Part shown: positions 15,339 through 62,964 of the stretch, in pieces
Position numbering within the stretch: the stretch's first letter is position 1
Layout of the letters: each line of letters starts with the position of its first letter
Source of the DNA: an uncultured bacterium
GTDB lineage: Bacteria; Krumholzibacteriota; Krumholzibacteriia; Krumholzibacteriales; Krumholzibacteriaceae
Assembly (NCBI GenBank): GCA_964599375.1
Contig: CAZREW010000015.1
Coordinates: 10,028 to 74,027, forward strand
Direction of reading: 5' to 3'
DNA: 64,000 bases
Translations under genes and position numbers: made by a program
Notes under the pieces: model-generated
The model's input: only the letters and a program-made list of their open reading frames with translations
Told to the model about the DNA's origin: nothing
The model's database searches: none

Positions 15339-15692
15339 TTACCCGCCGAGAAGTTCCCTGATCTTTTCCTTGAGGGGAGTGAGGTCCACGGACTTCACTA
15401 TATAGGCCTCGGCGGCCCAGGTCTTAAAGTTGTCCTTGAAGTCCGAATAGGCCGAATTGATTATCACCGGAAGATCCTTGCGGCGCTCGACTGTCATTAT
15501 CAGCGCGTCAATCCCGCTCTCGTCGCCGAGCTTCATGTCGAGGATCATCAGGTCCGGCGATTCCTTCTCGACGGACTCCAGCGCTTCAGCCACAGTCCCA
15601 GCCGATACCGTCTCATACCCCTCGCGACGCAACTCCTCGCTGTAGAGCTTCCTTACATTTATCTCGTCGTCTACTATAAGGATCTTTGCCAT
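15339..15692 (-). CDS. Single-domain response regulator (CheY-like receiver)
   Basis: KILIVDDE, PDLMILD (phospho-Asp), INSAY and VKS (conserved Lys); 117 aa with no output domain. Confidence 0.92.
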   Translation of the reverse strand: MAKILIVDDEINVRKLYSEELRREGYETVSAGTVAEALESVEKESPDLMILDMKLGDESGIDALIMTVERRKDLPVIINSAYSDFKDNFKTWAAEAYIVKSVDLTPLKEKIRELLGG

Positions 15693-15795
15693 CGGCTCCC
15701 CCGAATAAAAAACCGCGATTCAGCCGAATCCCGGTTCTATCATCGCCATAATTTGTACACCGGTCAAGTTCTTTTGTTCCGCCGGAGAGGTGAGA

Positions 15796-16953
15796 TCAGC
15801 CCGCATGGACCTTGATGTCGAGTATTACCTTTATAGGCACCTCGCTGCGGATCTCCTCCTCTGAAAGTTCGATCGGGACCGTGACCATCTTCGAGGGGCG
15901 TTCCTTGTTCTTCTCGGCCGAAACGGGCCCCTCGTCAGCGGCCACCTCCGGCTTTTCCTCCGGCAGATTGACGAGCGGATCGTTTATAAATCCTTCTTCT
16001 TTCTTCCCATGCGCCTCTACTACCTCCTGAGCCACAGCGACGCTGGATTTTACCTCCGCTTCCTGTCCCGCAGGTTCCCGGCCGTTGTCTCCGAGCTCGA
16101 CCATGTGCCCGTACTCCTCGTACCCTTCCCGAGCCATGCCGAGATCCTCGGCAGATTCTTTCTCACCCTCGGTCAGCACGTGATCGACAAACTCAGAGAC
16201 AGACTCGTGCTCCTCTTCTCTCTCCTCTGCGTAACCTGAAGTCTCGCTCTCGCCTGCCTCTGAGTCAATGCCCTTTGCCGCGCCCTGCGCTACTACCTCT
16301 GCGTCGACCAGTCCTTCGTCCTTGCCGCTTTTCTTACCCTCTTCCTTTCCGGCCTTGATGTCCTTGAGCTCACACCTGAGCTGCTTGAAGACCAGCTTGG
16401 CTATACCCTCGAATGTCTCGTACACCCCTCTGCCGTCGGTGGCCACGGCCTCGAACGAGGGGACTTTCCATTCGGAGTTAAGCCCCGCGTCGAGCTTCTT
16501 CCTGTCCATGCATCCCGGCACGTCCCTCTTGTTGTACTGCATCACCCAAGGGGTCCCGGAAAGTGACATCCCGATCTCATTGAGGTTCTCCTCGAGGTTA
16601 CTGAGGCTCTCGATATCGTCCTCCAGCCTGTCCGGGGAGGAATCAGCCACGAACACAAGGGCATCCACACCCTTGAGCACCAGCTTTCTGGTCGCGTTGT
16701 AATAGACCTGTCCGGGGACCGTATAAAGAAGGAACCTTACCTTGAGGCCGCCGAGTTCGCCGACCTCGATCGGAAGGAAGTCAAAAAAGAGCGTCCTGTC
16801 CGTACGCGTCTTCATCGAAACCATCTTGCCCTTGTTCTCGCGCGGGAGCTTGGAATACATGTACTCGAGGTTCGTAGTCTTACCGCTGAGCCCCGGGCCA
16901 TAATATACGATCTTAATGTTAACTTCTCCGCCTGCGTAGTTATAGACAGCCAT
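15796..16953 (-). CDS. mglA: MglA-family small Ras-like GTPase with ~190-aa acidic C-terminal extension
   Basis: KIVYYGPGLSGKTTNL, RTLFFDFLP, LYTVPGQVYYNATRKLVLKGVD, FVADS and QYNKRD motifs. Start at MAVYNY (16953) behind an AAGGAG RBS. Confidence 0.9.
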   Translation of the reverse strand: MAVYNYAGGEVNIKIVYYGPGLSGKTTNLEYMYSKLPRENKGKMVSMKTRTDRTLFFDFLPIEVGELGGLKVRFLLYTVPGQVYYNATRKLVLKGVDALVFVADSSPDRLEDDIESLSNLEENLNEIGMSLSGTPWVMQYNKRDVPGCMDRKKLDAGLNSEWKVPSFEAVATDGRGVYETFEGIAKLVFKQLRCELKDIKAGKEEGKKSGKDEGLVDAEVVAQGAAKGIDSEAGESETSGYAEEREEEHESVSEFVDHVLTEGEKESAEDLGMAREGYEEYGHMVELGDNGREPAGQEAEVKSSVAVAQEVVEAHGKKEEGFINDPLVNLPEEKPEVAADEGPVSAEKNKERPSKMVTVPIELSEEEIRSEVPIKVILDIKVHAG

Positions 16954-17198
16954 TATCAGCCACTCCTTGAAAAAGCCGGGGCGGGCTCCCGACCCGCTCA
17001 CCTGGTGCTGAAGACAAGGAAGCAGAATCCGGAGCAGGCGATACGTCACTTGAGCTAGGGTGTTCACTTCGTGATTCAAATGGAAGCGCCAACCCCGGCA
17101 GAGGGACAGAACCGCAAGTAACGTGCCACTGAAACATTATCAGCAGCATTTTTAACCCACTGTGAAAACGATGTTTAGGAAGGGTTACGCGATGTATG

Positions 17199-17275: not shown

Positions 17276-17620
17276 TCAATCCGAACATTCGTGGCCGTCG
17301 CAGCTGTAAGTAAGGCTTTTCGTGCTGCCGTCAGAGACGGTCACCTGATCCGTCCAGCAGAAATATGCATTGCCGATCTTGGCGTTGCTGGCCATATAAA
17401 GATCATATGTCCCTGCCGCCAGCGGGAAGAAAGCGGGCTCCTCGGAAGAAGCGAGGCCCTGGTACTCGCCATCGACGAAGACCCACACGCCGAAGGAAAG
17501 GCAATCCGTGTAATTGAGCCTTATGCCCGTGGGTGCGACTTCGGTGCTGTTGTCTGAGCATCCTGCCAGCAGCACCGGCATCAGGGCCAGTACGAATATA
17601 ACGGCACCGAGCTGCCTCAT
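17276..17620 (-). CDS. Small Cys-containing lipoprotein, hypothetical
   Basis: Lipobox LLAG-C after a hydrophobic signal; short beta-sandwich (WVFVDGEYQG, GTYDLY), loosely PEGA-like; 3 further Cys. Confidence 0.7.
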   Translation of the reverse strand: MRQLGAVIFVLALMPVLLAGCSDNSTEVAPTGIRLNYTDCLSFGVWVFVDGEYQGLASSEEPAFFPLAAGTYDLYMASNAKIGNAYFCWTDQVTVSDGSTKSLTYSCDGHECSD

Positions 17621-17732
17621 CTGAACCTCCCTTTACAGTATTAAAGCCGGTCACCGGGCACTCCGGGGCCCCCGACCTGAAGGAAATCTAACAAATGAGA
17701 GGCGGAGCGACAAGTGAAAAACGGGCGGTCGG

Positions 17733-18209
17733 TCAGGCCTTCTGGAGCCTGGACCCGCACCAGGGGCAGAAATTGAACCTTTCGCTCACAGTGTGCCCGC
17801 AACCGCAGGGAACCTCCGGACCCTCGTCCTTTTCCCCTTCGGAAGAGACTGAGCTGAAGCAGTTTTTCTTGAGCTGGTCGTAGAGTTCCTGGGCCTTAGG
17901 CAGGACGAACTCGTAATCCCTTCCAGAGCAGACTATCACGCGGGGATGGAGGTCGCCTCCCTCGATGCGTACGTCATCGACAGTCGCGAGGTCGATCGAT
18001 ACACCTCTCATCCCGAAGGACGAATCGAGATGGGACACCTGGAAGTTAAGCCGGCAGTCGGTCATCTCGAGAACGCCCCGGGCTGCGATCAGGCGGCTGA
18101 CGTAGTATATCGCTTTTTGCATGAAAAGAGTCTTTTCCGTGCATACCTGCAACGTTTTACCTCCATCGATAGTATGTGCCTGATCTTTGCCAGAACCGTG
18201 CCATTTCAA
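17733..18209 (-). CDS. Hypothetical protein: PH/GRAM-like domain plus C-terminal zinc ribbon
   Basis: GVLEMTDCRLNF...SIDLATVDDV resembles a PH/GRAM fold; C-terminal CGCG...FNFCPWCGSRL zinc ribbon. Start uncertain. Confidence 0.6.
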   Translation of the reverse strand: MKWHGSGKDQAHTIDGGKTLQVCTEKTLFMQKAIYYVSRLIAARGVLEMTDCRLNFQVSHLDSSFGMRGVSIDLATVDDVRIEGGDLHPRVIVCSGRDYEFVLPKAQELYDQLKKNCFSSVSSEGEKDEGPEVPCGCGHTVSERFNFCPWCGSRLQKA

Positions 18210-18213
18210 AGGC

Positions 18214-18243
18214 TTGACAGCCCGCTGAACCGGGGAATATCCT
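18214..18243 (+). promoter_or_regulatory. Putative sigma70 promoter of the acyltransferase-GT4-MFS operon
   Basis: TTGACA (18214-18219), 18-nt spacer, TATCCT (18238-18243), just before the start codon. Confidence 0.55.
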
Positions 18244-18253
18244 CTTTGATGTT

Positions 18254-19105
18254 GTGAAAATGACGGGGAATACAGTATTCAGGTTCACGGCAGCCGTCCT
18301 TGACACGCTTCCCGGACGGATCCGAAGTATCGCCGCCGACGTCTCGGCCCTGGGTTGTTTCTGCCTCTCCCCGGGCAAGAGACGCAATGTGCGTCGCAAT
18401 CTCTCCATAGTGGGCGCTCCGCGCTCCCGAGGCGAAGTGCTGAGCGTCTTCAGGATTCATTCGATGAACATGATCGAGATGTTCGCCTCTTCGAGATGGG
18501 AAGAGGAGGAGATAACCGGCCGCATCGATTTCCCTCAGAGGCGCATGCTCGACGAAGCGCTCGCCGCCGGCAGGGGGGCTATCCTCGCAACGGCCCATAT
18601 CGGCAACTGGGAGCTTCCCGCTCTTCTTCTCGGCTCGCAGGGGTACCGGCTCAGCGTAGTGGCAGGCGAACAGATGAACTCCATCCTCACCGGCTCCCTG
18701 AAACGCGCCAAGGAAGCCAGGGGGATAGAGGTCATCGGCCCCGATCAGCCCTACAGGAGACTCTACCGGATCCTCAGGGACGGCGGCATAGTAGCCCTGC
18801 TCCTGGACGGGGACATCTTCGAGGGCGGTATCCCGATCGAGCTCTTCGGAAGGCAGGTCAACCTTCCGCGGGGGGCCGCGAGGCTCGCCATGAGCACCGG
18901 CGCGCCGGTGCTCGGCGCGTTTTGCAGGAGGATCAGCGACGACAGGTCGAGGATCACAATGGAGACGCTCCTGGGACCCACAGAGGCCGGGCGCATAGGC
19001 GAGACCGCTTCCCAGGACAGGATATTCCCGGCGATCGAGAGGTACATCCGCGAAAACGCTGACCAGTGGTGCATATTCAGGAGCTTCTGGGAGGGCGTCG
19101 CATGA
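18254..19105 (+). CDS. LpxL/PatA-family lysophospholipid acyltransferase
   Basis: ATAHIGNWEL acyltransferase motif; VALLLDGD, FGR..LPRGAARLAMSTGAPV and PDQW-like (ADQWCIF) C-terminus. Confidence 0.85.
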   Translation: MKMTGNTVFRFTAAVLDTLPGRIRSIAADVSALGCFCLSPGKRRNVRRNLSIVGAPRSRGEVLSVFRIHSMNMIEMFASSRWEEEEITGRIDFPQRRMLDEALAAGRGAILATAHIGNWELPALLLGSQGYRLSVVAGEQMNSILTGSLKRAKEARGIEVIGPDQPYRRLYRILRDGGIVALLLDGDIFEGGIPIELFGRQVNLPRGAARLAMSTGAPVLGAFCRRISDDRSRITMETLLGPTEAGRIGETASQDRIFPAIERYIRENADQWCIFRSFWEGVA

Positions 19106-20265
19106 AGATAGGGATCGTGACGCAGTCGTATTACCCCAAACCCGGCGGGGTCACCGAGGTCGTGCATCATACGGCCGCCGAGCTGCGTCGGCTGGGGCAT
19201 GATGTCACGATCATCACGACGAGGTACGGTCCCGGCAGGCAGAAGGAGCCCGGAGTAATAAGGATCGGGCGGAATGTCCTCTTTCCGGCAAACGGAGCAT
19301 GGACCAACGTGACGGCTGGCTGGAGGCTCCGCCACCAGCTCGAGGAGATATTCCGCAGGGAGAGTTTCGACATAATCCAGACCCACTGCCCTCTCGTGCC
19401 CACGCTTCCGGCCCTTACCCTTCTCGCCGACAGGCATGGAGCGAGACTCGTCGGCACCTTCCATGCCGCGGCCGACAGTAACTTCCTGTACGCACTCCTG
19501 CGCCCGCTGATCGAGTGGGGAGCCCGGAACCTCGACCACAGGATAGCGGTCTCAGGGCCCTGCAGGGATTTCAACGCAAAATACTTTCCGGGTTTTTACG
19601 AGATAATCCCGAACGGGATAGACTCTAAGCGGTTCCGTCCCGGCATCCCCCCGATCGAGGGACTCCGAGACGGAAAGCTCAACATCCTTTTCGTCGGAAG
19701 GATGGACAGACGCAAGGGCCTGCCCTACCTCTTCAAGGCACTGCCTCTGATCCAGCGATCGATCCCGCGCCTTGTCAGGCTGATCCTGGTCGGCGAGGGA
19801 AACCTGCGACGCAAAGTGATGCCGAGACCTATAAGCCTCGGCGGCGCGGAGATAATGGCCGTAGGGCGTGTCGACGCCGGGCTGCTGCCGAGCTACTACG
19901 CCTCTTCCGATATCTTCTGCGCTCCCGCCACGGGCAGAGAGAGCTTCGGAATAGTCCTTCTTGAGGCGATGGCCGCCGGCGTCCCCATAGTCGCCTCGGA
20001 CATCCCCGGTTTCAGCAAGGTGATCACGAGGGGAAAAGACGGCATTCTCACCGCCCCCGGGTCCCCCGCGGAATTGGCCGACGCGGTCGCCAGGATAGCC
20101 TCCGATCCCGGGATGGCGGCGAGGATGTCAGCCCTGGGGCGCCAGAAGGCCATATCCTACGACTGGGGATCGATCACCGCCAGGCTGGAAGAGAGCTTCC
20201 TGAGGGTCCTCACGGAAGGACCGGGGACGGCCGCACAGAGCAGGGAAAAGGCGGAGGTCCGATGA
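19102..20265 (+). CDS. GT4 glycosyltransferase, PimA-like
   Basis: MKIGIV..PGGV, FVGRMDRRKGL and APATGRESFGIVLLEAMAAGVPIVASDIPGF motifs. ATG at 19102 overlaps the upstream stop. Confidence 0.88.
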   Translation: MKIGIVTQSYYPKPGGVTEVVHHTAAELRRLGHDVTIITTRYGPGRQKEPGVIRIGRNVLFPANGAWTNVTAGWRLRHQLEEIFRRESFDIIQTHCPLVPTLPALTLLADRHGARLVGTFHAAADSNFLYALLRPLIEWGARNLDHRIAVSGPCRDFNAKYFPGFYEIIPNGIDSKRFRPGIPPIEGLRDGKLNILFVGRMDRRKGLPYLFKALPLIQRSIPRLVRLILVGEGNLRRKVMPRPISLGGAEIMAVGRVDAGLLPSYYASSDIFCAPATGRESFGIVLLEAMAAGVPIVASDIPGFSKVITRGKDGILTAPGSPAELADAVARIASDPGMAARMSALGRQKAISYDWGSITARLEESFLRVLTEGPGTAAQSREKAEVR

Positions 20266-21542
20266 AGGACCGAGGAGCCGGGAAGGAACGAAACGGCGAG
20301 GCGGCGGCAGTGGCGATATCGGGCGCCCTGCTTTCAGCGTTCTGGGCCGCACAGGCTGTATCGCTGTTCGGTGACAGGCTCAACAACTTCTCCCTCGTGG
20401 CTCTGGTGAACAGGTTCTCGAAAGATCCATCGCTTCAGCTCTCGGGTATATACGCGGCGATGTATCTGCCCGTCTTCCTTCTCGCCCCGGCGGCTGGAGT
20501 AGTCGTAGACAGATTGAACAAGAGATGGGTGCTTGCCGCGACTGACCTGGCGCGTGGTCTCCTCGTGCTGCTCATACCGGCGGCGTTCGCCGCGACCGGG
20601 AGCTTCATCCCTGTCATGGCGGTCGTCTTCCTCGTCGCATCCGGCAATCTTCTTTTCCTTCCAGCAAAATCCGGCTTCCTCCCCGAGATCGTCCCGCCCG
20701 AAAAGCTGGTCCGCGTGAACTCGATACTCTGGATCGCGGGGATCGCCGGAGTCATCGGAGGGTTCCTCGGCGGTGGTATCATCTTCGACTATTTTTCTTG
20801 GAAGGCATGCTTCTATCTCGACGGGGCTACCTATCTCATCTCCGCCTCGCTGCTGACTGCCATCGCGCTGCGGCTCCCACGCGGGCCGCAGCCCGCGCCA
20901 CGGGCGGGCCCGGCCGGGGAGTCCGCGCTCGCTGGATTCTGGCGCTCCGCCGCCGAGGGCCTTGCCGAGATAAGGGGCAACCGTTCTCTTGCCGCCCCGC
21001 TGGTCGTGCAGTCGCTGATATTTTTCGGCGCCGGCGGGTTCTCTGTCCTCGCGGTGGTCATGATCGGAGGAGTCTCGAAAGAGGGCAGTTCGATGGGGCT
21101 CGCCGCCGCTGGACTTTCGGCCGGGGCAGGGATGGCCGCCGGGTCCCTGCTCGCGCACCGCCTGGGCCGGAACGCGGGGCGGCCGGCCGAGGGCGCGCTT
21201 TTTCTCCTGTTCGCCCCCGCGGCTGCGGCCGTAGCCCTCTCCTCCTCGCTCGCGCCGGTGTGCGTAGGGATGTTCACGGCCGGACTCGCGGCCACGCCGC
21301 TCTTCGTGATCTCGGAGTCCCAACTCCAGGAGAGGATACCGGAAGGCCTTCGGGGCCGGGTCTTCGCGCTCAGGGAGGTGCTGACCCGCAGCCTCTTCCT
21401 CGCATCCTCCTTTCTCATGAGTTTTCTTGGCAGAGCGACAGGTAAAGGAGCCCTGCTCATACTGCTTGGCCTTTTTCTTGCAATCTCAGGATTGATCCGT
21501 GTCTTTTTATCCGGGTCCACCGATACCGATAACGATAACTGA
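20262..21542 (+). CDS. MFS transporter (12 TM)
   Basis: MFS motif A (GVVVDRLNKRWVL), LQERIPEGLRGRVFA; translationally coupled to the GT4 gene. Confidence 0.88.
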   Translation: MKDRGAGKERNGEAAAVAISGALLSAFWAAQAVSLFGDRLNNFSLVALVNRFSKDPSLQLSGIYAAMYLPVFLLAPAAGVVVDRLNKRWVLAATDLARGLLVLLIPAAFAATGSFIPVMAVVFLVASGNLLFLPAKSGFLPEIVPPEKLVRVNSILWIAGIAGVIGGFLGGGIIFDYFSWKACFYLDGATYLISASLLTAIALRLPRGPQPAPRAGPAGESALAGFWRSAAEGLAEIRGNRSLAAPLVVQSLIFFGAGGFSVLAVVMIGGVSKEGSSMGLAAAGLSAGAGMAAGSLLAHRLGRNAGRPAEGALFLLFAPAAAAVALSSSLAPVCVGMFTAGLAATPLFVISESQLQERIPEGLRGRVFALREVLTRSLFLASSFLMSFLGRATGKGALLILLGLFLAISGLIRVFLSGSTDTDNDN

Positions 21543-46789: not shown

Positions 46790-47653
46790 TTAGCTGGCGT
46801 CGGCCGGCCGATCCGGGGGGATGCCCGGCCTGACAGCGGCGAGGACCAGGGTCGATGCGAGGAGCGAAATGGGAGGGGTCCTCTCCATGACGGCCTCAAG
46901 CCCCCTGGCCAGCGGGAAGACCGGATCCGGCAGGTTCTTCAGAACGAAGATGATCCTCTGCGAACCCGTTACCTCGAACCCCTCATCCTCGAGCATCGAC
47001 CTGATCTCCCCCTCAGGAGAGGGCCTGTGGTATCTGTACGGATGGTAGTCGGACCGCTCGATCTCACCTACGGGATAGCACATCCCGGGGAGCGCCCTCT
47101 TGAGGAACGGCAGCCTGTTGGCGACCCGCTTCCCTGTCTCGACGAACGAGTAGTAGTTTGGAGTGGAAAGGACGAGGGCGCCCCCCGGCTCGAGAACGCG
47201 CCACGCCTCACGGACAGCTGACCGGCGGTCGGGGTGAAAGACATGCTCGAATGTCTCAACCGCCGTGACCGCGGCAAAGGTACCGTCGCCGAAGGGAAGA
47301 GCGCTCATGTCGGCGCAGCTGAGCCTTGACTGCGTGCCGTTCGCAGCCGCGATCATCGATGCCGCCGCGAAATCGTTCTGCACAATGTCTATCCCGTACG
47401 GGGCGTAGCCGCGAAGCCCTAGAAGAAAGAGGTTGTATCCCCACCCGCAACCGACGTCGAGTGCCCGGCGCCCCATCCCGGCCGGGAGCATCCCGGTCAC
47501 CGCCACGAAGCGCCTGCGGCTGAGCCACCTCTTCGCCTTCGAGCCGAGAAACCAGTTCTCTAAAAGGCTCGGCATCCGATCCGCCTGTATCCCCACCGGG
47601 ATAACAGGCTCGGGAAGGTCTTTCATCTCCAGGCCGGGCCGATCCGTATTCAT
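46790..47653 (-). CDS. Class I SAM-dependent methyltransferase
   Basis: ALDVGCGWG, ADMSALPFGDGTF, ETFEHV and LEPGGALVLSTPN motifs; last gene of the glycan operon. Confidence 0.9.
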   Translation of the reverse strand: MNTDRPGLEMKDLPEPVIPVGIQADRMPSLLENWFLGSKAKRWLSRRRFVAVTGMLPAGMGRRALDVGCGWGYNLFLLGLRGYAPYGIDIVQNDFAAASMIAAANGTQSRLSCADMSALPFGDGTFAAVTAVETFEHVFHPDRRSAVREAWRVLEPGGALVLSTPNYYSFVETGKRVANRLPFLKRALPGMCYPVGEIERSDYHPYRYHRPSPEGEIRSMLEDEGFEVTGSQRIIFVLKNLPDPVFPLARGLEAVMERTPPISLLASTLVLAAVRPGIPPDRPADAS

Positions 47654-49179
47654 CGCGCTTCCCCCTCACCCGCGGGATCGATCCTGTAAAGCGTGTACGT
47701 GACCGGCTCCGGCTTGCGGATCCCGAGATTCGAGACTGTACCCTCCCTCACCGCGGTAAAGCGGAAGCCCCTTATGACCGATCCGTCGAAGCGGCGCGGC
47801 TCAGGGTGCCGGTCGACGAGATAATCCGCGCCGAGGTCGAGATAGAGCCCCTCGTCGATGATACGCTGCACATCTATCCTTCTGCGCATATCGTTGATCT
47901 CCGGTGTGACGAGCCCTCCGAGGTCGAGCACCCTGCGCCCGGAGAAATACCCGATGGCCCCGATGTCCGGTGTCGCGACTACCGACCCCGGCGGCGAATT
48001 CTCCGCCAGCCAGATCCCCATCGGCACGAGAACCTCCCGCAGGCCTCTCGAGAATTCCCTCGTCGGGCGCACCGCTACCGCGAAATAGAATGTGAGGCTC
48101 TGCAGCATCGTCAGGACGGCCATCGCAGCGATCAGTCTTCGCGCCGTCCCCGTGGAGACGCCCCGCAGCAGCCTGGCCGCTCCTGTGAAACCCACGGCTA
48201 TCAGAGCGGGGAAGACCGGCAACAGGTATCTGGACAGAACGTGAAAATCGAATATCACATATACCGCCGGAAGCAGGAAGGCCCAGATAAGAAGGAGAAA
48301 AAACCCCCCGCGCGATACACCGGCGGCCGGCTCGAAGAGTCGCCCGCGGCGGAATATCCCGGCGACCGTGAATGCCGCCGCGACCGCAGCCGGCAGAAGA
48401 AGGGTCGCGCCTATCACCTTGATCGGGACGAGCGCGGACGCGAGCATCGCTGCGCCGAAGGCCGGCCTCCCCTGTTTGGCTCCGGCGGTCAGGGGAAGGA
48501 ATGTGCCTGTATGAGCTCGTACGGCGATGAGCCAGCACGCCATCAGGGCCGAGAAGACGAGGAGCCAGAGGAATCGTCTTTTCAGCGGGGTGTGCCGTTC
48601 GGCCGCCGCGAACGCGACGAAGGCCGCCGGGACCATCAGGCCCGCTTCCGGCCTCGCGAGACAGGCGAGGAAGAGGAGCAGGCCGAAGACGGCGCTCCTT
48701 GAGGCCGAGCGCGTTGCCGTCAGCGCCGCGAAGAGGCATACCAGGACGGCTAGCATCGCGAAAGAGGATTCCATGCCTGTGGCGCTCCACCTGAGCAGCC
48801 AGGCCTCGCATGCCAGCACCGCCGCCGCGGCCGCGGCGACCATCCTGGTCCCGTCGAGCTTCCTGACGAAGAAATAGATCGTGATTATCGAAATGGCTCC
48901 TGCCGCCCATGAGAACACACGGATCCAGACCGCGAGATCGCCGCCGGCCAGATACGTCAGGGCGAGCAGACCGACCCACAGCGGGCTGGTGGCGCCGTAC
49001 GAAGGGTCCCCCCTGTTGAACGCGAGCTCCCCCGTCTCGGCAAGGTTACGCGCGTACTGCATATGTATATAAGTATCGTCGGTCATCGATCCGGCCAGAG
49101 GGATGCTGGCGGCCGCGAAGAGAGCGACGCAGGCCGCGACCACGGCGATATCTGTTTTATTCACATGGCCTGCCATCAC
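47650..49179 (-). CDS. Polytopic membrane protein, putative GT-C glycosyltransferase
   Basis: Periplasmic DDTYIHMQYARNL...GATSPLW loop, GMES, LARPEA, RYLLP and DIGAIGYF motifs; ~11-13 TM. Confidence 0.7.
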   Translation of the reverse strand: MMAGHVNKTDIAVVAACVALFAAASIPLAGSMTDDTYIHMQYARNLAETGELAFNRGDPSYGATSPLWVGLLALTYLAGGDLAVWIRVFSWAAGAISIITIYFFVRKLDGTRMVAAAAAAVLACEAWLLRWSATGMESSFAMLAVLVCLFAALTATRSASRSAVFGLLLFLACLARPEAGLMVPAAFVAFAAAERHTPLKRRFLWLLVFSALMACWLIAVRAHTGTFLPLTAGAKQGRPAFGAAMLASALVPIKVIGATLLLPAAVAAAFTVAGIFRRGRLFEPAAGVSRGGFFLLLIWAFLLPAVYVIFDFHVLSRYLLPVFPALIAVGFTGAARLLRGVSTGTARRLIAAMAVLTMLQSLTFYFAVAVRPTREFSRGLREVLVPMGIWLAENSPPGSVVATPDIGAIGYFSGRRVLDLGGLVTPEINDMRRRIDVQRIIDEGLYLDLGADYLVDRHPEPRRFDGSVIRGFRFTAVREGTVSNLGIRKPEPVTYTLYRIDPAGEGEAR

Positions 49180-50468
49180 GCGTCCCTCCTCCTGCCGGCT
49201 ATCAGCTCGAGCTCGCGGGCCAGACTCTCGGCTGCGGCCCTTCTCGAAAACTCCGGTCTCGGCGACAGATCGTAGGCCGACTCGAGCGTCCCGTCCCTGT
49301 ACGCCGAATATATCCGCCTCAGCGCTGTCGCGACTTCGCCGGCGTCACCCGGCCCGGCGACCTCGCCCCTGCGCAGATTCCTGACAAGATCGGCCGCCTC
49401 CCCCGGCGGAGCCAGGGCAAGAACGGGCCTGCGGGCGCCTATGTACTCGTAGAGCTTGCCCGGAACGAGCCCGTTGTATCTCGGGTCGTCGTGCTTGATC
49501 AGCAGGAGCACGTGGCTCCTGCGCTCCCGTTCGATGCACTCGGTGTGCGGCATGTTATCCTCGAACACTACGCACTTCCCGATCCCGTCGAACCCCTCGA
49601 GATCCTCGTTCGCCGATTCCCTGGCCCCGATGAATTCGACCCTGATCCTTCCATTCGCCTCAGGCACCGCTGTGAGAAACCGCGAAAATCCTTCGAGAAA
49701 GACACGTGACCTGCGGCCAAGCGTCAGCATCCCGCAGTGCGTAATCAGCAGGGGGCCGCCGGGAGGCCGTTGCGGCTCCGAGGTGAAATCCTCCTCGTCG
49801 TACCCGTTCGGTATCCTCACGACATTGCATGAAGGGACGCTCCGCGACAATTCGTCCTGCTGCCACCTTGTAGTTACAACTATGGTATCAGCGCCGTGCT
49901 CGACCCGCCTTTCCATGCCCTCGAGGATAGACCTGTGAACTGCGGAGACCGGATCGCGGAGGTAGAGAGATATCCATGGATCCCTGAAATCGGCGAGCCA
50001 CGGCAACCCCGTCCTCCTGGCGACCTTCAGCGCGGCCAGATGAGTGGAGTCGGGCGGGCTTGTCGAGTAGAGAGCGTCGAACCTCTCATTGCGGCAGAGC
50101 CTGAGAGCCTCGCTTACGGCGAACGGCCTCCATCCCGTATAGGTGTCGGGCAGAAGGAATGATTCCCCGGCCCTTCTCATCAATTCGAAACCGCCGGAAG
50201 ACCTCGCGCCGGCCCGTCGGCCCCTCAGATTGCCGAGGATCCTCGACGCCGACAGTGAACCTGTCCTGATGACGCGGACGCCCGCCGGAATCTGCCTTTC
50301 CAGAGAAGGGTCGTTGATCCAGAACTCGCCGGGCTTCGGCGTGACCACGGTGATACCCCAGCCCGTCCTCGAGAGATACTTTACAAAAGAAAGCGGCCGG
50401 TACACCCCTCCCCCGCCTGCGGGCGGGAAGAAGTTGATCATCATCAGCAGCTTTCGAGAAGACATCAT
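49176..50468 (-). CDS. GT4-family glycosyltransferase
   Basis: FFPPAGGGGVYR, STSPP..HL, DFRDPW, IPNGYD and PGKLYEYIGARRPVL motifs. Confidence 0.88.
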   Translation of the reverse strand: MMSSRKLLMMINFFPPAGGGGVYRPLSFVKYLSRTGWGITVVTPKPGEFWINDPSLERQIPAGVRVIRTGSLSASRILGNLRGRRAGARSSGGFELMRRAGESFLLPDTYTGWRPFAVSEALRLCRNERFDALYSTSPPDSTHLAALKVARRTGLPWLADFRDPWISLYLRDPVSAVHRSILEGMERRVEHGADTIVVTTRWQQDELSRSVPSCNVVRIPNGYDEEDFTSEPQRPPGGPLLITHCGMLTLGRRSRVFLEGFSRFLTAVPEANGRIRVEFIGARESANEDLEGFDGIGKCVVFEDNMPHTECIERERRSHVLLLIKHDDPRYNGLVPGKLYEYIGARRPVLALAPPGEAADLVRNLRRGEVAGPGDAGEVATALRRIYSAYRDGTLESAYDLSPRPEFSRRAAAESLARELELIAGRRRDA

Positions 50469-52009
50469 CCCTCCAGTGATAGCACCCAGCGTACCAGCCC
50501 CGCGCCGGGACGGCCGGCTATCATCGCCGCCAGCGTCTCCGATTCACCGTGGTCGAGCAGGAACAGCTTCCTGACCGCCAGACGCAGAAGGAAGGGGGAC
50601 AGCAGGATGCATGCCGCGGCGGCGGAAACCCCCCAGGCAGCGCACGCTACTGCTCCGGCGACCGCGAATATCAGCGAGGCGCCGGCGGCCCTGAGCATGG
50701 CGGAACCGCCCGTGCCGGGAAAGAGCCCTTCCCTCCTGGCGAGCCATACGGCGACGGCGGCCTGGACGGCAGACGCTGTCAGCTGGGCAACTGCCGTGCC
50801 TGTCAGCCCGACATGCGGGACTATGATGAAGAGGCCGGAGAAGTAGACGGCCATCCAGGACAGGTCGCAAACCACCGCCCATTTCATGTAATGCAGCCCC
50901 TTCATGGCCGCGGTAAGGGGCGCTATGAAGGCGGCAACCGGCACCGTCGGCAGTAGCATGAGCAGAAGCCTGTACGTGCCATGGTATCCCGGACCGCTTA
51001 TCAGGCTGATCATCACCCCTCCGATGGCGGCTGCGACGGCCGATATCGCCAGGGCCGCCGTTACGCTCGCCTTTGTGAAAAGGCCGATTCGGCCGGAGAG
51101 GTCGTCCCACCTTCCCTCCTCATATATCCTGGTAAGCTCCGGCTGGAGCGCGACGACGGGGAATCCGAGGAATCTCTTTATCAGCTGGTTTATTCTCGAA
51201 GCGACGTGATACACAGATATCGCTGCGACGGGAAGCAGGGATGACATCATGAACCTGTCCACGTCAGAGAAAGCCAGCGCAGCATAGCTGAGCGCAAGCG
51301 CGCTTCCCCAGTAACCGGCCAGCGGAGGAAGGACCACGCCTCCCGAGGCGCCTGAACCGCCGTGAGAGAAATTCCATCTCATGATCAGAAGGTACGCGGG
51401 TATTCCCGCCACCCAGGTCAGGGCGTTGAGGACGAACATCGCCTTGAAAAGGACCTCCACATCGAGACGGTCACGCCAGATCAGGACAAAGGCCGTAAGG
51501 AGGACCTGGAAAGCGAGCTCGAATATCATCTGCATCCGCATCTCCCGGAGCCCGTTGAACCCGCCGTACAGGACGAGCTTGAGGCCGAGCGCAGCCGACG
51601 CCAGTATCATCCATTTCAGAGTTCCGCCCGGTACGGAGAGGCTTTTCGGCATAAGGCCCACCCAGTGTGGAGCGGAAAAAAGCAGGATAGCCCCGAGCAC
51701 GATCACGGCGGCTGAAAAGAGGAGGAACCAGGCGGCGGCGCTGCCGCGCTTCCCTCTCCTCTGGAATGAGGGAAGGTAACGGACAAGGACCTGTGGGAAT
51801 CCGACGATGATGACCGTGGTGAGCAGGAGAGCGAAGCCCCTCAGCGCGACATACAGGCCAAAGCGCTCCCCGCCGAGATGCCTGCTCAGCATGCTGAGCT
51901 GCACAAGCGTGAAGATCATCTGCAGAGCGCCGGCGACCGCGAGGGCGACCGTATTCTCCGCTATCCTCGACCGGCCTCTCTCTACCGTCTCTTCAGCCAC
52001 TCGATCCAT
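50465..52009 (-). CDS. Wzx-like oligosaccharide flippase (MOP family)
   Basis: About 13-14 TM; LSRHLGGERFGLY, DVDRFMMSSLL..ISVYHVA and LISGPGY patterns. Confidence 0.82.
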   Translation of the reverse strand: MDRVAEETVERGRSRIAENTVALAVAGALQMIFTLVQLSMLSRHLGGERFGLYVALRGFALLLTTVIIVGFPQVLVRYLPSFQRRGKRGSAAAWFLLFSAAVIVLGAILLFSAPHWVGLMPKSLSVPGGTLKWMILASAALGLKLVLYGGFNGLREMRMQMIFELAFQVLLTAFVLIWRDRLDVEVLFKAMFVLNALTWVAGIPAYLLIMRWNFSHGGSGASGGVVLPPLAGYWGSALALSYAALAFSDVDRFMMSSLLPVAAISVYHVASRINQLIKRFLGFPVVALQPELTRIYEEGRWDDLSGRIGLFTKASVTAALAISAVAAAIGGVMISLISGPGYHGTYRLLLMLLPTVPVAAFIAPLTAAMKGLHYMKWAVVCDLSWMAVYFSGLFIIVPHVGLTGTAVAQLTASAVQAAVAVWLARREGLFPGTGGSAMLRAAGASLIFAVAGAVACAAWGVSAAAACILLSPFLLRLAVRKLFLLDHGESETLAAMIAGRPGAGLVRWVLSLEG

Positions 52010-52950
52010 CTCCTCTTCTTCTCAAGGACAGGATAGAGATATTCCGTGCCGCCCATCGATTCCTTGAAGAAGATCATGCCTGCGTCCCCGCCACTGCTGC
52101 CCAGATTGAAGACGGAAGTGCCCCTGCCGATCGCCTCACGCACTGCGACCATTACGAGATAGGCCGCGGCGTCGTACTCGCTCGCCAGAGGAGCCACACC
52201 CGCCTGCCAGGCCTGGGCCGTCCTGCCGAAATAGAAATCAACGTGGGCGGCAAGCAGGGAGTCCCCGAGAAACGCTCCCCAGAAACATACACCCTCGCTA
52301 CCCCGGCGCAGCAGGCTCCTGAAGAATTCCATGGGGTACGGATGGACCCCTCCCCATCCTGTGGCTCCGTGGAGATATATATCGTAGAACAGCCCGAAAT
52401 CGTCCTCGCCCTCGAGCCTTCTGGCGATGATCCCCTCGCGTTCGCACCTGTTGCACAGCTGGCGCCTTTTACGGCTCATCCCCCTGCTCCTGTACTCCTC
52501 GAACGAACCGGGAAGCGTGATGATCCTGCACTCCTCCATCCTGCGTCTCCAGCCCCTGGGGTTCTCCCACTCTTCCACGAACCCTATCAGATTGGCGCCG
52601 GCGCGGGCGCATCTGGGAGAGGAAGCGATCTCGCAGAACCTGTCCAGGACCGCCCTTCGGACATCCGGATCGGAAGAGAGCGGATCGCCGTATGTGCCGA
52701 ATGGAAGCGAATGCAACATGAAGGCAGGGCCCTTGGTCACCCTGACCACAGGCATCAGGCCCTTCAGGCTACCGCCCCTGCGGGCGGCGAGCCAGCCACA
52801 CTCGAAACGCGGAAAGGCCTCCGCAAGTATCTCCAGCCATGTGGGGGAATGGAAGAATGTGGCGCCCTCGAAGGCCGAGACGAACTCGAGGACCTCCTCG
52901 CGGGAAAGATCAGTCTCGAAGCGGATCTCCACGGGCCCTCCGTTGATCAC
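51982..52950 (-). CDS. GNAT/FemAB-like acyltransferase
   Basis: TFFHSPTW, SLPFGTYG, SRKRRQ, PYP..FF and FNLGSSGG...FKESMGG motifs. Confidence 0.8.
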   Translation of the reverse strand: MINGGPVEIRFETDLSREEVLEFVSAFEGATFFHSPTWLEILAEAFPRFECGWLAARRGGSLKGLMPVVRVTKGPAFMLHSLPFGTYGDPLSSDPDVRRAVLDRFCEIASSPRCARAGANLIGFVEEWENPRGWRRRMEECRIITLPGSFEEYRSRGMSRKRRQLCNRCEREGIIARRLEGEDDFGLFYDIYLHGATGWGGVHPYPMEFFRSLLRRGSEGVCFWGAFLGDSLLAAHVDFYFGRTAQAWQAGVAPLASEYDAAAYLVMVAVREAIGRGTSVFNLGSSGGDAGMIFFKESMGGTEYLYPVLEKKRRWIEWLKRR

Positions 52951-54389
52951 GAGCTTCGTCCCGGGTCATCTCCGAAGCCGGGGATCAGCTCCGACATCAT
53001 CCGGAGAACGCCGTCCCTGTCCCCTTTCTCTGCCGCTTTGATGAGCCTGTCAACACCGGCCCCGAAATCTTTGCCCACAGCAGCGGGCGATCTGGCGAGC
53101 ATGATCTTTTCTCCGGAAACTGGCGGCTCCAGGATCTCGTCCTCTCCGATGAGGACTTCGTGGAGCTTCTCACCCTCCCTGAGCCCGGAAAATTCTATCG
53201 GTATCTCTTCATCCGGATCGTGCCCGGTAAGCATGATGATGTCCCTGGCCATCTCGAGGATGTTGAGCGCCTCGCCCATATCGAGTATGTACGTCTCCCC
53301 GCCTTTGCCGGACACCGATGCCTGTATCACGAGGAGCGTTGCCTCCCTGACCGTCATGAAGAACCTGGTGGCTCCGGGATGGCTGACAGTGACCGGCCCT
53401 CCCCTCGCGATCTGGTCCACGAAAAGCGGGACGACACTGCCTGTGCTGCCGATGACGTTTCCGAACCGGACGGTGATGAACCTGCAGGCGCTTTCCGGAT
53501 CGATCCCGCGCAGGTACATCTCGACCAGCCGCTTTGTGGCGCCCATCACTCCTTTGGGATCTGCCGCCTTGTCGGTCGATATGAACACAAACCGCTCAGC
53601 GCCGCATTTTTCGACCGCTTTCACGAGGTTTATGGTAGCCGCGACGTTGTTCAGCACGGCCTCTTCGGGATCACGTTCCATGTAGTGCACGTGCTTGTGC
53701 GCTGCGGTGTGATATACCACGTCCGGGGCAAGCCTCTTCATCAACTTCAGGAGCCTTTCGGGCTCGCGCAGATCGTTGATGACGGTGACTATCTCGAACC
53801 CAGGATTGTCGGCTCTTATCTCCTGCTCGATCGCGAAGATCCTGTTCTCGCCGCGGCCCAACATGATCAACGCCGCGGGCTTGACGCGGGCAAGCTGCCT
53901 GCACAGCTCGCTGCCGATCGTGCCGCCTGCTCCGGTGACAAGTATCCTCTTGCCTGCCAGGCTTCTGGCGGCCGATTCGAGATCGAAGCTTACCGTCTCC
54001 CTGCCGAGGAGATCCTCCACTCTCACTTCGCGGATCTGGTCGATGTGGACCGTCCCGCGGATGATCTCCATGAGGCCCGGCACGATCTTGTACTCAACAC
54101 CGGCCCTGCGGCACCGCCTGACGATGTCGCGTACAAACCTGCCCGGGGCGGTCGGAATCGATATGATGACCTCGTCTATGCCGCGATCCGCGACGACCGA
54201 TTCGAGCTCGGTCGTCCTGCCAAGCACGGGCGCGCCCTCGATCTCCGCCCCGGCCAGGGTCACGTCGTCATCGAGAAAACCCTCTATCGTCGCGTTGATC
54301 TCGGCAGAACAGCTGATCTCCGAGGCGATCATACGCGCGGCCTCGCCCGCGCCGACTATCAGTACCCTCCTGCACCTGTCACCGATCAC
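52947..54389 (-). CDS. CapD/PglF/WbpM-type UDP-HexNAc 4,6-dehydratase, without N-terminal TM region
   Basis: LIVGAGEA (CoA-binding-like domain), EDLLGR, TGAGGTIGSEL, AAHKHV, STDKA, MGATK, RFGNVIGS and TRFFMT motifs. Confidence 0.92.
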   Translation of the reverse strand: MIGDRCRRVLIVGAGEAARMIASEISCSAEINATIEGFLDDDVTLAGAEIEGAPVLGRTTELESVVADRGIDEVIISIPTAPGRFVRDIVRRCRRAGVEYKIVPGLMEIIRGTVHIDQIREVRVEDLLGRETVSFDLESAARSLAGKRILVTGAGGTIGSELCRQLARVKPAALIMLGRGENRIFAIEQEIRADNPGFEIVTVINDLREPERLLKLMKRLAPDVVYHTAAHKHVHYMERDPEEAVLNNVAATINLVKAVEKCGAERFVFISTDKAADPKGVMGATKRLVEMYLRGIDPESACRFITVRFGNVIGSTGSVVPLFVDQIARGGPVTVSHPGATRFFMTVREATLLVIQASVSGKGGETYILDMGEALNILEMARDIIMLTGHDPDEEIPIEFSGLREGEKLHEVLIGEDEILEPPVSGEKIMLARSPAAVGKDFGAGVDRLIKAAEKGDRDGVLRMMSELIPGFGDDPGRSS

Positions 54390-56716
54390 CTTACCACCGC
54401 GACCTTTCTCATGGACGTTCCCCCGGTTCCTTTCACGAATACTATGTAGATCCCCGAAGCGGCCTGATAACCGTTCATCGTCAGGAGGTCCCAGGCCACC
54501 TCGCCCTCGGCCACTCCTGCCACTTCATGGACCAGTTCGCCCTCCAGCGTGTAGACACGTATATCGACCAGGCCGCTTATCCGGGATATCCGCAGCTCGC
54601 TGTCCCCCCTGGCGGCATGGACTGGATTCGGGAAGAGGATCATCTCCGACATCGGCGTTATCACTTCCACCGGCTCGTTCGCGTCGAACCTGGCCAGCCC
54701 GTTATCCGTTCCGATCCACATGAATCCTCCCGCCGGATCGTAGACCAGCGCCCTGCAGATATGATCGGGAAGCGGGGATATGACGTCTTCAGCCTTGTAG
54801 ATCAGGTTGAGCTCGTTCTGCCACTCGAGTGCGGTGGTATACGCCTCGGCGATGTTCCCGTCCCCCTCGATCCTGTTCATGCCTCTGTTCGTGGCGACCC
54901 ACAGCCCGCCGCGCCCGTCGAACTCGATATCATATACCGTGCCTCCTATCAGGCCCTCGTCGCGGTCCCGGGTCTTTTCGGTAAATGAATGGATCGTTCC
55001 CTGAGAATACCTGACGAGCCCCGCCGAAGTCCCTGCCCATATGCTGCCGTCAGGTCCCCGCTCCACCGCCCACAGCTCCGTGCTGGGAAGCTGGCCGGAG
55101 CCTATGACGGTGATCCAGTAGTCGCCCGAGTTCGAGGTCAGGGTCGGCCAGTCGAAACCTCCCGTGTGCCAGTACATCACTCCGTAACCTCTGATGGCGA
55201 TATACGCCCCCTGGTCATCGAAGGCGCAGTCGAATATACTGCCGCCTTCCATCTGGGGATAGCTCTCAGGATCGACCGACAACCAGTCGTCCCCGGCCCT
55301 GCTGGCTATGTTGATCCCCCACATCCCGCTCTCGAATCCGACGTCGTCGGACATGAACCACCTGTTGCCGCCCGGATCCTCACGGGCTTTGACAAACCTG
55401 TCAGACGTTATCGTCCCGGTGCCGACCGCGAAATGCGCCCAGATATCATCGTCCTTGTCGAGCGGATCCCCGATCTCGATCCTGTCGAGATCGTAGTCCA
55501 GGGAGTTGCACCAGAGAAAACCCTGTGAATCATTCAGCAGGGCAAGGTTGTTTATAAAATAGGAAAGCGCGTCGTCGTTACCAACGTCGCTCCTTATCTT
55601 TGTGTAAGCCACCCACCGGTCGCCGGTAGAACGCAGCGAGATCCCGTACCTCCCCGTGCTCGCCCAGACATTCCCCGCCTGATCGCAGTCGAGGGCTACT
55701 ATCATGTTCTGGCTGAGTCCCTCGGGCCGGAAAGATGTCCACCCCACCCCGCTTGATCCGAAGAGGTAGATCCCCCTGGCGCCCTCCTCATAGAAACCGC
55801 CTGTCCACGGCGTTCCTCCGCCGTCGACCGCGAGAGCTCCGAGGATATTCTGGCTCCAGCCGATCCTGTACTCCTGAAGCTGCAGGTTCTTGAGCTCGAC
55901 GGCGGCCTGAAGGGCCCAGTAGGCGCCGTTCCACATGTATACCTGTTCAAGGGTCACACAGCACAGATTCCCTCCCCCTGAGGCGACAGCCACCGGGGCC
56001 ATGTGCAGGCCCCCGCCGAGCACCGGCCATGATCCGTCACCGAGGTGAAGGATATCGGGACCCGACACGCAGTAGACATCTCCTTCATGCACACAGACCG
56101 ACAAGACTTCTCCGACATCATAGAAGGTATATGCGAAGGTCTCGCGATCGTAACTCGCTATCCCTTTTTCGCAGGCTACCCACAAAAGACCGCTGGAAGG
56201 GTCCCAGGCGAGGTCGTACACAGTCCTTCCCTCCATGCTGTCGGTAAGGACAGGCTCTGTAGCCGGTGTATTCTCGTAGAACTTCGCCACTCCCCCGGTT
56301 CCGCCATAGTAGATATCGTCATCGACCGTCAGGAGGCACATCACGCTGTCGCTCAGTATGCCATCGAGCGTCTCGGTATATTCCTTCACGACGCGACCAC
56401 CGTCCGGGTCGTCTATCCGTGCTACACCGGCGACCCTCATCGCCGCCCATATGCTCCCTCTCCCGTCGACAGTCACAGCTGTGATATCGTTCGATCTGAG
56501 ATCGAGCCCGTCGAGGTATTTCGTAAAAGTCGAGTCCCGGAGGTCAAAGAGGAGGATCCCTCCCCTAGTCCCGCACCAGAGGCTGTCTCCCAGAGCCGTG
56601 ACCCTGTTGATCGCGCTGGCATCCATATATACGTTCCAGTCTCCCGGCGCCCCGTCGGCACTCGCGCCGGCACAGACGATCAGCGCCGCGAACAGGATAA
56701 ATCTGATCGTTTTCAA
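54386..56716 (-). CDS. PorZ-like secreted beta-propeller protein with T9SS type-A C-terminal domain
   Basis: Signal peptide; many propeller blades (AVTVDGRGSIW, DIEFDGRGGLWVAT, WIGTDNGLARF); C-terminal FPNP...RVYTLEGELV...WD...ASGIY...KVAVVR. TTG start at 56716 overlaps the upstream stop; 776 aa. Confidence 0.75.
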   Translation of the reverse strand: MKTIRFILFAALIVCAGASADGAPGDWNVYMDASAINRVTALGDSLWCGTRGGILLFDLRDSTFTKYLDGLDLRSNDITAVTVDGRGSIWAAMRVAGVARIDDPDGGRVVKEYTETLDGILSDSVMCLLTVDDDIYYGGTGGVAKFYENTPATEPVLTDSMEGRTVYDLAWDPSSGLLWVACEKGIASYDRETFAYTFYDVGEVLSVCVHEGDVYCVSGPDILHLGDGSWPVLGGGLHMAPVAVASGGGNLCCVTLEQVYMWNGAYWALQAAVELKNLQLQEYRIGWSQNILGALAVDGGGTPWTGGFYEEGARGIYLFGSSGVGWTSFRPEGLSQNMIVALDCDQAGNVWASTGRYGISLRSTGDRWVAYTKIRSDVGNDDALSYFINNLALLNDSQGFLWCNSLDYDLDRIEIGDPLDKDDDIWAHFAVGTGTITSDRFVKAREDPGGNRWFMSDDVGFESGMWGINIASRAGDDWLSVDPESYPQMEGGSIFDCAFDDQGAYIAIRGYGVMYWHTGGFDWPTLTSNSGDYWITVIGSGQLPSTELWAVERGPDGSIWAGTSAGLVRYSQGTIHSFTEKTRDRDEGLIGGTVYDIEFDGRGGLWVATNRGMNRIEGDGNIAEAYTTALEWQNELNLIYKAEDVISPLPDHICRALVYDPAGGFMWIGTDNGLARFDANEPVEVITPMSEMILFPNPVHAARGDSELRISRISGLVDIRVYTLEGELVHEVAGVAEGEVAWDLLTMNGYQAASGIYIVFVKGTGGTSMRKVAVVR

Positions 56717-58773: not shown

Positions 58774-58791
58774 ACTGCTTCGATCGAGGGG

Positions 58792-59508: not shown

Positions 59509-59512
59509 ATCT

Positions 59513-61981: not shown

Positions 61982-62054
61982 TAAACTCTCCTCTATCGAT
62001 ACAGGGGCATGCTACCTTACTGATTGTATCATTATCACATCAGCCCATAAAAGG

Positions 62055-62963: not shown

Positions 62964-62964
62964 C

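Follow-up and report, generated by a model that had tools for sequence, protein, structure and literature searches.

A conserved four-gene operon of Krumholzibacteriota with a possible role in making and handling an acylated membrane glycolipid

What might a bacterium outside the Actinobacteria make with a PatA-like acyltransferase, a PimA-like glycosyltransferase and a transporter of the major facilitator superfamily (MFS) when all three are encoded in overlapping genes? The question is raised by a plus-strand block of genes, flanked on both sides by minus-strand genes, in a stretch of 64,000 nucleotides of contig CAZREW010000015.1, the whole of which is called the window here. The window is a chromosomal piece of about 61% G+C, the names of homologues point to an uncultured Candidatus Krumholzibacteria bacterium as its source, and DNA runs of salt-marsh metagenomes contain nearly identical DNA. 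An initial annotation had described the block as a unit of three open reading frames (ORFs) at 18254-21542 for the synthesis, acylation and flipping of a glycolipid. All three ORFs are present and the block does lie on the plus strand, but it ends at 21994, a fourth gene, ORF4, having been overlooked. The block consists of the following features:

18254..19105, plus strand: PatA-like lipid acyltransferase (LPLAT/Lip_A_acyltrans family, Pfam PF03279), 283 amino acids (aa)
19102..20265, plus strand: PimA-like GT4 (GT-B) glycosyltransferase (Glyco_transf_4 and Glycos_transf_1), 387 aa
20262..21542, plus strand: MFS transporter with 12 transmembrane segments (12-TM), DHA3/LplT-like (Pfam MFS_1 and MFS_3), 426 aa
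21554..21994, plus strand: ORF4, soluble orphan protein without family match, 146 aa, last gene of the operon
18214..18243, plus strand: promoter-like site TTGACA-18 nucleotides (nt)-TATCCT lying between the operon and the divergent genes upstream of it, agreeing with the consensus at 10 of 12 positions

We give a probability of about one half to the reading that these genes form a conserved operon of the Krumholzibacteriota for the synthesis and handling of an acylated membrane glycolipid. What was observed directly is the gene content with its tight coupling and its conservation, the closest relatives, the catalytic residues that are kept and an MFS::acyltransferase fusion in a sister phylum. 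The stop of the GT4 gene overlaps the start of the MFS gene in the tetranucleotide ATGA, as had been noted initially, and to this can be added the same ATGA overlap between the acyltransferase stop and the GT4 start; 11 nt separate the MFS stop from the start of ORF4, which is preceded by GGGAG. The listed ORF of GT4 runs from 19066 to 20265, and homologues point to the ATG at 19102 (MKIGIV...) as its start. A promoter of its own had also been ascribed to the unit. The hexamers exist, but the region contains two promoter-like sites where 1.3 would be expected after shuffling and, being no commoner than in shuffled sequence, they were dropped as evidence.

Searching the GTDB species representatives with an alignment of the acyltransferase recovered the order acyltransferase-GT4-MFS-ORF4 in 10 of the 10 Krumholzibacteriota species returned, where the contig allows (L008-L016; L007 is cut off), and metagenomic contigs show matching gene order. 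Across the Krumholzibacteriota loci, identity to the window proteins amounts to 41-76% for the acyltransferase, 54-85% for GT4, 49-81% for the MFS and 74-97% for ORF4, and the ATGA coupling of GT4 and MFS is retained across the phylum. Its recurrence in all Krumholzibacteriota species representatives that were found shows that the arrangement is no chance juxtaposition, and synteny of the trio extends through the whole phylum and beyond it. In an exhaustive search with the MFS, scores fall off steeply after a few relatives, which are encoded as follows:

P0242 (L093), MFS identity 39%: acyltransferase-GT4-MFS, then a truncated ORF4 homologue at the contig end
P0243 (L094), MFS identity 40%: GT4-MFS-ORF4
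P0247 (L097), MFS identity 36-38%: acyltransferase-GT4-MFS
P0245 (L095 and L096), MFS identity 32%: MFS-ORF4 only, in the conserved neighbourhood, both enzymes absent

In addition, an Eisenbacteria locus (L017) carries acyltransferase-GT4 in the same neighbourhood of an MglA-like GTPase as the window.

The glycosyltransferase carries ILFVGRMDRRKG and RESFGIVLLEAMAAG. PimA of Mycobacterium smegmatis matches it over the full length (residues 1-367; 148 bits, E 2e-42), the next solved structure reaching 74 bits, and for the N-terminal 178 aa, which form the acceptor-side domain, PimA is the sole solved match (E 9e-12). PimA is therefore by far the best solved relative, but the close resemblance claimed initially is an overstatement at an overall identity of 30.6%. 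When the PimA residue roles compiled in the literature (PMC9202250) are projected onto GT4, the phosphate, sugar and catalytic residues are found to be kept (P14-G15-G16, N63, H118, R196, R201, K202 and E274...E282), and G15-G16, R196, K202, E274, E282 and H118 are conserved in every aligned GT4 family member. The residues of PimA that handle phosphatidylinositol (PI) are replaced (Y9S, with a Tyr at position 10 instead, Q18T, Y62A/V, R68N and N97L), E199 is R/K or lost by a one-residue deletion, depending on gap placement, and the guanine/ribose contacts are replaced as well (R228E/D, D253A/P and K256L/I). R68N and N97L are invariant across the Krumholzibacteriota GT4s, and the Eisenbacteria GT4s have R68P. 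Because PI- and guanine-binding residues of PimA are replaced in GT4, the canonical reaction of GDP-mannose with PI seems unlikely. Judged from these comparisons, GT4 is PimA-like in architecture and probably a glycosyltransferase acting on lipid head groups.

The HxGNWE motif that had been ascribed to the acyltransferase is confirmed (AHIGNWEL; Pfam Lip_A_acyltrans, 90 bits). Its best NCBIfam model is the PatA equivalog NF005919 with 107 bits, under the cut-off of 209, and none of the LpxL-type NCBIfam models, whose cut-offs start at 248, exceeds 68 bits. Relatives, too, score best with the PatA equivalog (137 bits for the acyltransferase of L097 and 164 bits for an Eisenbacteria fusion described below, both under the cut-off), LpxL-type models staying at or below 78 bits across the window acyltransferase and its relatives. 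In a search of the PDB, PatA of M. smegmatis scores 56 bits versus 25 bits for LpxM. H115 (in HIGNWE), E120, K153 and D185-G-D187 are invariant among four aligned Krumholzibacteriota homologues. In PatA, His126 is catalytic and Glu200 is its partner (residue roles per PMC4792965), and the counterparts of H126, E200 and D131 in the window acyltransferase are H115, D185, which is a conservative change, and E120; D185 is thereby the putative charge-relay acid. Among the PatA residues that bind the phosphatidylinositol mannoside (PIM) PIM2, R164 aligns with K153, E149 with G138 (E139 is adjacent) and H284 lies beyond the aligned stretch. Within the first 60 residues, hydropathy peaks at 1.12 in the acyltransferase versus 1.56 in LpxL and 2.0 in a homologue linked to genes for 3-deoxy-D-manno-octulosonic acid (Kdo), and by this measure an N-terminal transmembrane-like segment, the anchor of LpxL-type enzymes, is absent.

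In a trimmed alignment, the acyltransferase is 36% identical to its Eisenbacteria L017 homologue, 30-31% to homologues linked to GT28 genes, 29% to Kdo-linked homologues of Nitrospirota, 27% to PatA and 19% to LpxL and LpxM of E. coli. On the grounds of model scores, the 19% identity, the missing anchor and the gene context, the designation as a lipid A late acyltransferase was rejected. In a first neighbour-joining tree, PatA stood with the GT28-linked clade as sister to a clade of Krumholzibacteriota plus Eisenbacteria, an arrangement that is not robust: with a saturating distance measure, bootstrap support was limited to the Krumholzibacteriota clade (100/100) and this clade together with L017 (99/100). 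One further homologue, at a contig start (L006:143-1111) and called as 322 aa, has, in place of the usual N-terminus, a part that matches DAGK_cat and may be an assembly chimera or a rearrangement.

Relatives of the acyltransferase also occur in other gene contexts. At about 35 loci from Omnitrophota, Planctomycetota, Verrucomicrobiota and other PVC-group bacteria, they directly follow a gene for a GT28 resembling monogalactosyldiacylglycerol synthase and are nearly always followed by a short GT2 gene (about 230 aa), away from lipid A genes. This triad GT28-Lip_A_acyltrans-GT2 (L018:6865-9532 and about 35 others, L020-L073), often followed by small unannotated genes, looks like another acyl-glycolipid unit. 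In Nitrospirota (L055:5398-9806; also L057, L062, L069, L076 and L078), an acyltransferase homologue stands after kdsA-kdsD-kdsC-like genes and before pgsA-like and plsY-like genes, all of these names having been read from the translations without family search, and is probably a true lipid A late acyltransferase. The GT28-linked and kds-linked contexts imply that Pfam family PF03279 mixes glycolipid and lipid A roles. That its members in many diderm phyla adjoin glycolipid glycosyltransferases and not lipid A genes bears on automatic annotation.

The transporter matches Pfam MFS_1 with 90 bits, and MFS_3 as well, its best subfamily model being DHA3 TIGR00900 (137 bits, under the cut-off of 319.6). 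The MFS domain of PRK08633, a fusion of the acyl-ACP (acyl carrier protein)-phospholipid acyltransferase type, scores 84 bits, the LplT equivalog NF008397 38 bits (cut-off 297), and Mef-type models at most 46 bits (Mef(A) 46; cut-offs of at least 675). LplT of E. coli is 29% identical over 124 aa (E 6e-6). An AlphaFold2 (AF2) model with a predicted local distance difference test (pLDDT) of 85 has the 12-TM MFS fold. The parallel with LtaA, from which the initial annotation had argued for flipping, is not backed by sequence: similarity was detected neither to LtaA nor to any MFS of known structure, as PDB chains gave no match either with the single sequence (E up to 0.01) or with a profile of 50 sequences (E up to 1), and the fold is generic. 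A structure of LtaA is presumably among the PDB entries. Six of the 150 best MFS relatives (P0302, P0325, P0327, P0329, P0347 and P0362) have an N-terminal DUF5317 membrane domain fused to them; the N-terminal extension of P0363, the seventh long relative scanned, gave no domain match.

Fusions of another kind link this transporter to acyltransferases. The same 150 relatives comprise one protein with an N-terminal MFS and a C-terminal Lip_A_acyltrans domain (P0359) and two MFS::PlsC-type acyltransferase fusions, and the fused relatives include P0359, P0348 and P0355. The family of P0359 consists of about 80 clusters of 745-790 aa, for which the sources that name an organism give Candidatus Eisenbacteria and which are labelled automatically as 'KDO2-lipid IV(A) lauroyltransferase' (JGI) or 'MFS transporter'. 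In all three loci examined (L090:7001-10560, L091:7001-10508 and L092:7001-10392), the fusion gene, coding for 747-788 aa, is directly followed by a GT4 gene whose product shares 40-44% identity with the window GT4 and 37-40% with PimA; between the fused acyltransferase domain and PatA, identity is 32-35%. The flanks of these loci (OPT, EamA, DUF401 and radical SAM/SPASM) are unrelated to those of the window. The same three functions, rearranged and partly fused in a second phylum, indicate that the transporter has been tied independently to the lipid enzymes, and nothing else available speaks as strongly as this Eisenbacteria fusion for an action of the MFS on the lipid of these enzymes. In the standard 12-TM topology of MFS proteins both termini are cytoplasmic, from which it follows that the fused acyltransferase should act at the cytoplasmic face, as PatA does. 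A glycolipid synthesis-acylation unit with a coupled MFS, as it had been proposed, is well founded, and the fusion strengthens this part of the proposal.

ORF4 has no match in Pfam or NCBIfam, its AF2 model has a pLDDT of 61 and gave no match in a fold search, and it carries neither a signal peptide nor a lipobox. No other gene of the operon is as conserved: its identity is 74-97% where the other three proteins range over 41-85%, and its invariant motifs include QNTFRA..S.M..HGWG.G..P.N and RVSKDIL. Of its 223 homologues, the 120 listed are all at least 71% identical, and the source names given are all of the Krumholzibacteria type, bar one 'Patescibacteria group' label. Even where both enzymes are absent (L095 and L096), ORF4 remains beside the MFS.

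From these data we infer what the substrates are, in which order the steps follow, that the MFS carries a lipid and which way it does so. GT4, as a peripheral GT-B enzyme, would move a hexose from a nucleotide sugar onto the head group of a membrane lipid in the cytoplasmic leaflet, and the PatA-like acyltransferase would then esterify a fatty acyl chain onto that sugar by means of its His115/Asp185 dyad. By analogy with YpfP/LtaA, the translationally coupled MFS would carry the glycolipid across the inner membrane, more likely outward, so that the glycolipid can reach the cell envelope, and ORF4 might be a cytoplasmic accessory protein. A more far-reaching proposal, which seems possible to us and is put forward tentatively, is that the MFS represents an unrecognised family of glycolipid transporters that partners the PatA-like acyltransferase, being joined to it in one protein in Eisenbacteria, and forms, with the PimA-like glycosyltransferase, a self-contained synthesis-acylation-translocation module for a new class of acyl-glycolipids in candidate phyla of the FCB group.

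Several observations weigh against a glycolipid operon of this kind. At L095:1350-3057 and L096:1104-2811, MFS-ORF4 lies between genes for the MglA-like GTPase and for HATPase/zinc-ribbon proteins without acyltransferase and GT4, although these contigs are only 4-5 kb long and the enzymes may be encoded elsewhere in that genome, and at L017 there is no MFS match in the 0.7 kb remaining on the contig; the unit is therefore not always as complete as initially envisaged. In its similarities, the MFS is an ordinary member of the DHA3-like transporters which, taken alone, is indistinguishable from a drug pump. Among its 2,247 relatives at E<1e-10, the fusion proteins do not rise above the background plateau of about 100-160 bits, and the fold search returned generic matches only (VMAT, VGLUT, ferroportin, NorA, MdfA and Spns1; TM-score 0.65-0.73), which do not discriminate the substrate. 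The Kdo-linked acyltransferases of Nitrospirota (29%) are about as close to the window enzyme as the GT28-linked ones, and since the bootstrap does not resolve the deep branching of the acyltransferases, we make no claim on it. Finally, the runs that hold the sequence are all DNA, from salt-marsh metagenomes, and none of them offers RNA evidence for co-transcription.

It must also be asked in which direction such a transporter would work, and whether it belongs to the enzymes at all. LplT with Aas is the sole characterised partnership of an MFS with an acyltransferase, the two genes overlapping in E. coli, and if this were the model, the MFS would flip a lyso- or de-acylated (glyco)lipid inward and the acyltransferase would re-acylate it, in the service of repair or remodelling and not of export. 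After DHA3, the next NCBIfam matches of the MFS and its relatives are indeed the LplT-type fusion domain and then LplT, the stretch of similarity to E. coli LplT points the same way, and MFS relatives are fused to acyltransferases of both the PlsC and the PatA type. With this LplT-type homology and these fusions, inward salvage is as well precedented as outward flipping. Salvage would make a glycosyltransferase needless, yet the PimA-like GT4 is kept beside the pair in both phyla and at the fusion loci; moreover, the LplT equivalog score lies far below its cut-off, and the acyltransferase is of the PatA type and not an Aas-style combination of PlsC with an acyl-ACP synthetase. Salvage is the main rival reading, but we regard it as rather unlikely. 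Still less likely appears an operon of convenience, in which the enzymes make a glycolipid or glycoconjugate and the MFS with ORF4 is an unrelated, co-transcribed efflux or metabolite transporter. The persistence of MFS-ORF4 without the enzymes in L095 and L096, the L017 enzymes without an MFS match and the affiliation of the MFS to the DHA3 drug/H+ antiporters, with homologues named 'DHA3 family macrolide efflux protein-like', would agree with it; the MFS::PatA-like fusion followed by a PimA-like GT4 in a different Eisenbacteria neighbourhood, the ATGA coupling kept across the phylum and the low scores of the Mef-type models speak for a functional tie.

Two further explanations concern the chemistry of the product and seem very unlikely to us. 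One is a true PIM pathway outside the Actinobacteria, in which GT4 would be the PimA orthologue using GDP-mannose and PI, the acyltransferase the PatA orthologue making Ac1PIM, and the genes for PI would lie elsewhere in the genome. PimA and PatA are the best characterised relatives, the acyltransferase and GT4 genes are adjacent in the order of the actinobacterial patA-pimA genes, as had been pointed out initially, and the Eisenbacteria versions are even closer to both proteins. On the other hand, PIM-like chemistry is not supported, given the loss of most PI and guanine contacts (the critical or ligand residues Y9, Q18, Y62, R68, N97, E199, R228, D253 and K256 are replaced throughout the family), and neither enzyme reaches family-level membership, PatA scoring 107 bits against the cut-off of 209. 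Neither the 64-kb window nor any fetched locus of the clade yielded a CDP-alcohol transferase or an inositol-phosphate synthase; in keeping with the initial annotation, the CDP-alcohol transferase motif is absent from all window ORFs of at least 90 aa, and no inositol-phosphate synthase is present among the window ORFs scanned. Inositol lipids are, besides, reported to be rare in bacteria (PMC9246714). The other explanation would place the genes in the assembly of lipid A and the core of lipopolysaccharide (LPS), the acyltransferase acting as a late (secondary) acyltransferase of lipid A and GT4 as an inner-core glycosyltransferase on Kdo-lipid A, and is just as improbable. It could appeal to a presumably diderm host, to the name of the Pfam family, 'lipid A biosynthesis acyltransferase', to the automatic JGI name of the Eisenbacteria fusions and to the Nitrospirota homologues (about 29%) directly after kdsA-kdsD-kdsC. 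LpxL/LpxM models and identities are low, however, the N-terminal membrane anchor is absent, and none of the Krumholzibacteriota or Eisenbacteria loci has Kdo or lipid A genes close by. LPS, furthermore, is flipped by the ABC transporter MsbA and not by an MFS. Seen as a whole, the interpretation offered by the initial annotation is partly supported.

Upstream of the operon, two small divergent genes occupy 17276-18209 on the minus strand. One encodes a predicted lipoprotein, with a LLAGCS lipobox read by eye, and the other a C-terminal zinc-ribbon protein with weak similarity, below threshold, to DUF7575; the listed TTG start of the latter is probably about 30 codons too early, judged by homologue lengths, and the gene is found at the same position in most Krumholzibacteriota loci. 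They are preceded, at 15339-17079 (minus strand), by a gene for an MglA/Arf-like small GTPase of 427 aa with a long acidic C-terminal extension, which recurs in L001, L005, L017, L095 and L097; in the window, L001 and L005 a response-regulator gene comes after it. The place of this GTPase gene beside the operon locus is retained in Krumholzibacteriota and Eisenbacteria as well as in related lineages. Elsewhere in the window there are housekeeping genes (GroEL-like, ValRS, RecG and a dcw/mur cluster) and, at 46790-63906 on the minus strand, a separate cluster for a surface polysaccharide with its own Wzx-like Polysacc_synt flippase, which means that the cell has a conventional flippase for polyprenol-linked sugars elsewhere. 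Its other genes encode a methyltransferase, a GT-C of the PMT_2 type, a GT4 and two GT2 (one with a CoA_binding_3 domain), and there are also another GT4 fragment and a YfhO-like match that is weak and below threshold.

A literature search on lipids of Krumholzibacteriota found nothing relevant, and the operon predicts a specific acylated glycolipid for the envelopes of Krumholzibacteriota and Eisenbacteria, which is testable by heterologous expression. To our knowledge, bacterial glycolipid flippases are mostly unidentified, that for mycobacterial PIMs included, and the operon provides a rare genomic link to a lipid transporter. The step by which PIMs cross the mycobacterial membrane is still not conclusively established (PMC13223929), and if the MFS does represent an unrecognised transporter family, it would offer a concrete model for the flipping of PIM-type lipids. 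The natural fusion of an MFS with a PatA-like domain beside a PimA-like gene links this MFS subfamily to glycolipid chemistry and supplies a tractable protein for flipping assays.

Among known systems, the mycobacterial pgsA1-patA-pimA genes share with the operon the acyltransferase gene immediately upstream of the GT4 gene, and the nucleotide-phosphate and EX7E residues of PimA as well as the His/acid dyad of PatA are kept here. They differ in that the window enzymes are only about 31% identical to PimA and 27% to PatA, that PI and guanine contacts are replaced, that the gene for a CDP-alcohol (PI-phosphate) synthase is missing while an MFS and an orphan gene are added, and that the host is non-actinobacterial and presumably diderm. 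In Staphylococcus aureus, LtaA flips a glycolipid product outward (PMC8866510), and ypfP-ltaA resembles the operon in encoding a cytoplasmic-face lipid glycosyltransferase with a 12-TM MFS; in contrast, the MFS has no sequence similarity to LtaA, the glycosyltransferase is a GT4 here and a GT28 there, and an acylation step is present here. With the mycobacterial pair Rv1410/LprG, in which the MFS has been linked to the exit of acylated lipids from the inner membrane (PMC10576003), it shares an MFS encoded together with an accessory protein, although no solved MFS chain is matched and ORF4, without signal peptide or lipobox, is not LprG-like. In the case of E. coli lplT-aas, whose LplT acts as a lysophospholipid transporter (PMC8866510), and of PRK08633-type fusions, an MFS is likewise genetically coupled or fused to a lipid acyltransferase, and the homology of the window MFS to the LplT-type domain is weak but significant. 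Here, however, the acyltransferase belongs to PF03279 and not to the PlsC type, an acyl-ACP synthetase domain is lacking, the LplT cut-off is far off, and a glycosyltransferase is an obligatory neighbour. An operon in which a lipid glycosyltransferase and an acyltransferase are paired with an MFS lipid transporter is thus of a type already known, and the variant found in the Krumholzibacteriota is new.

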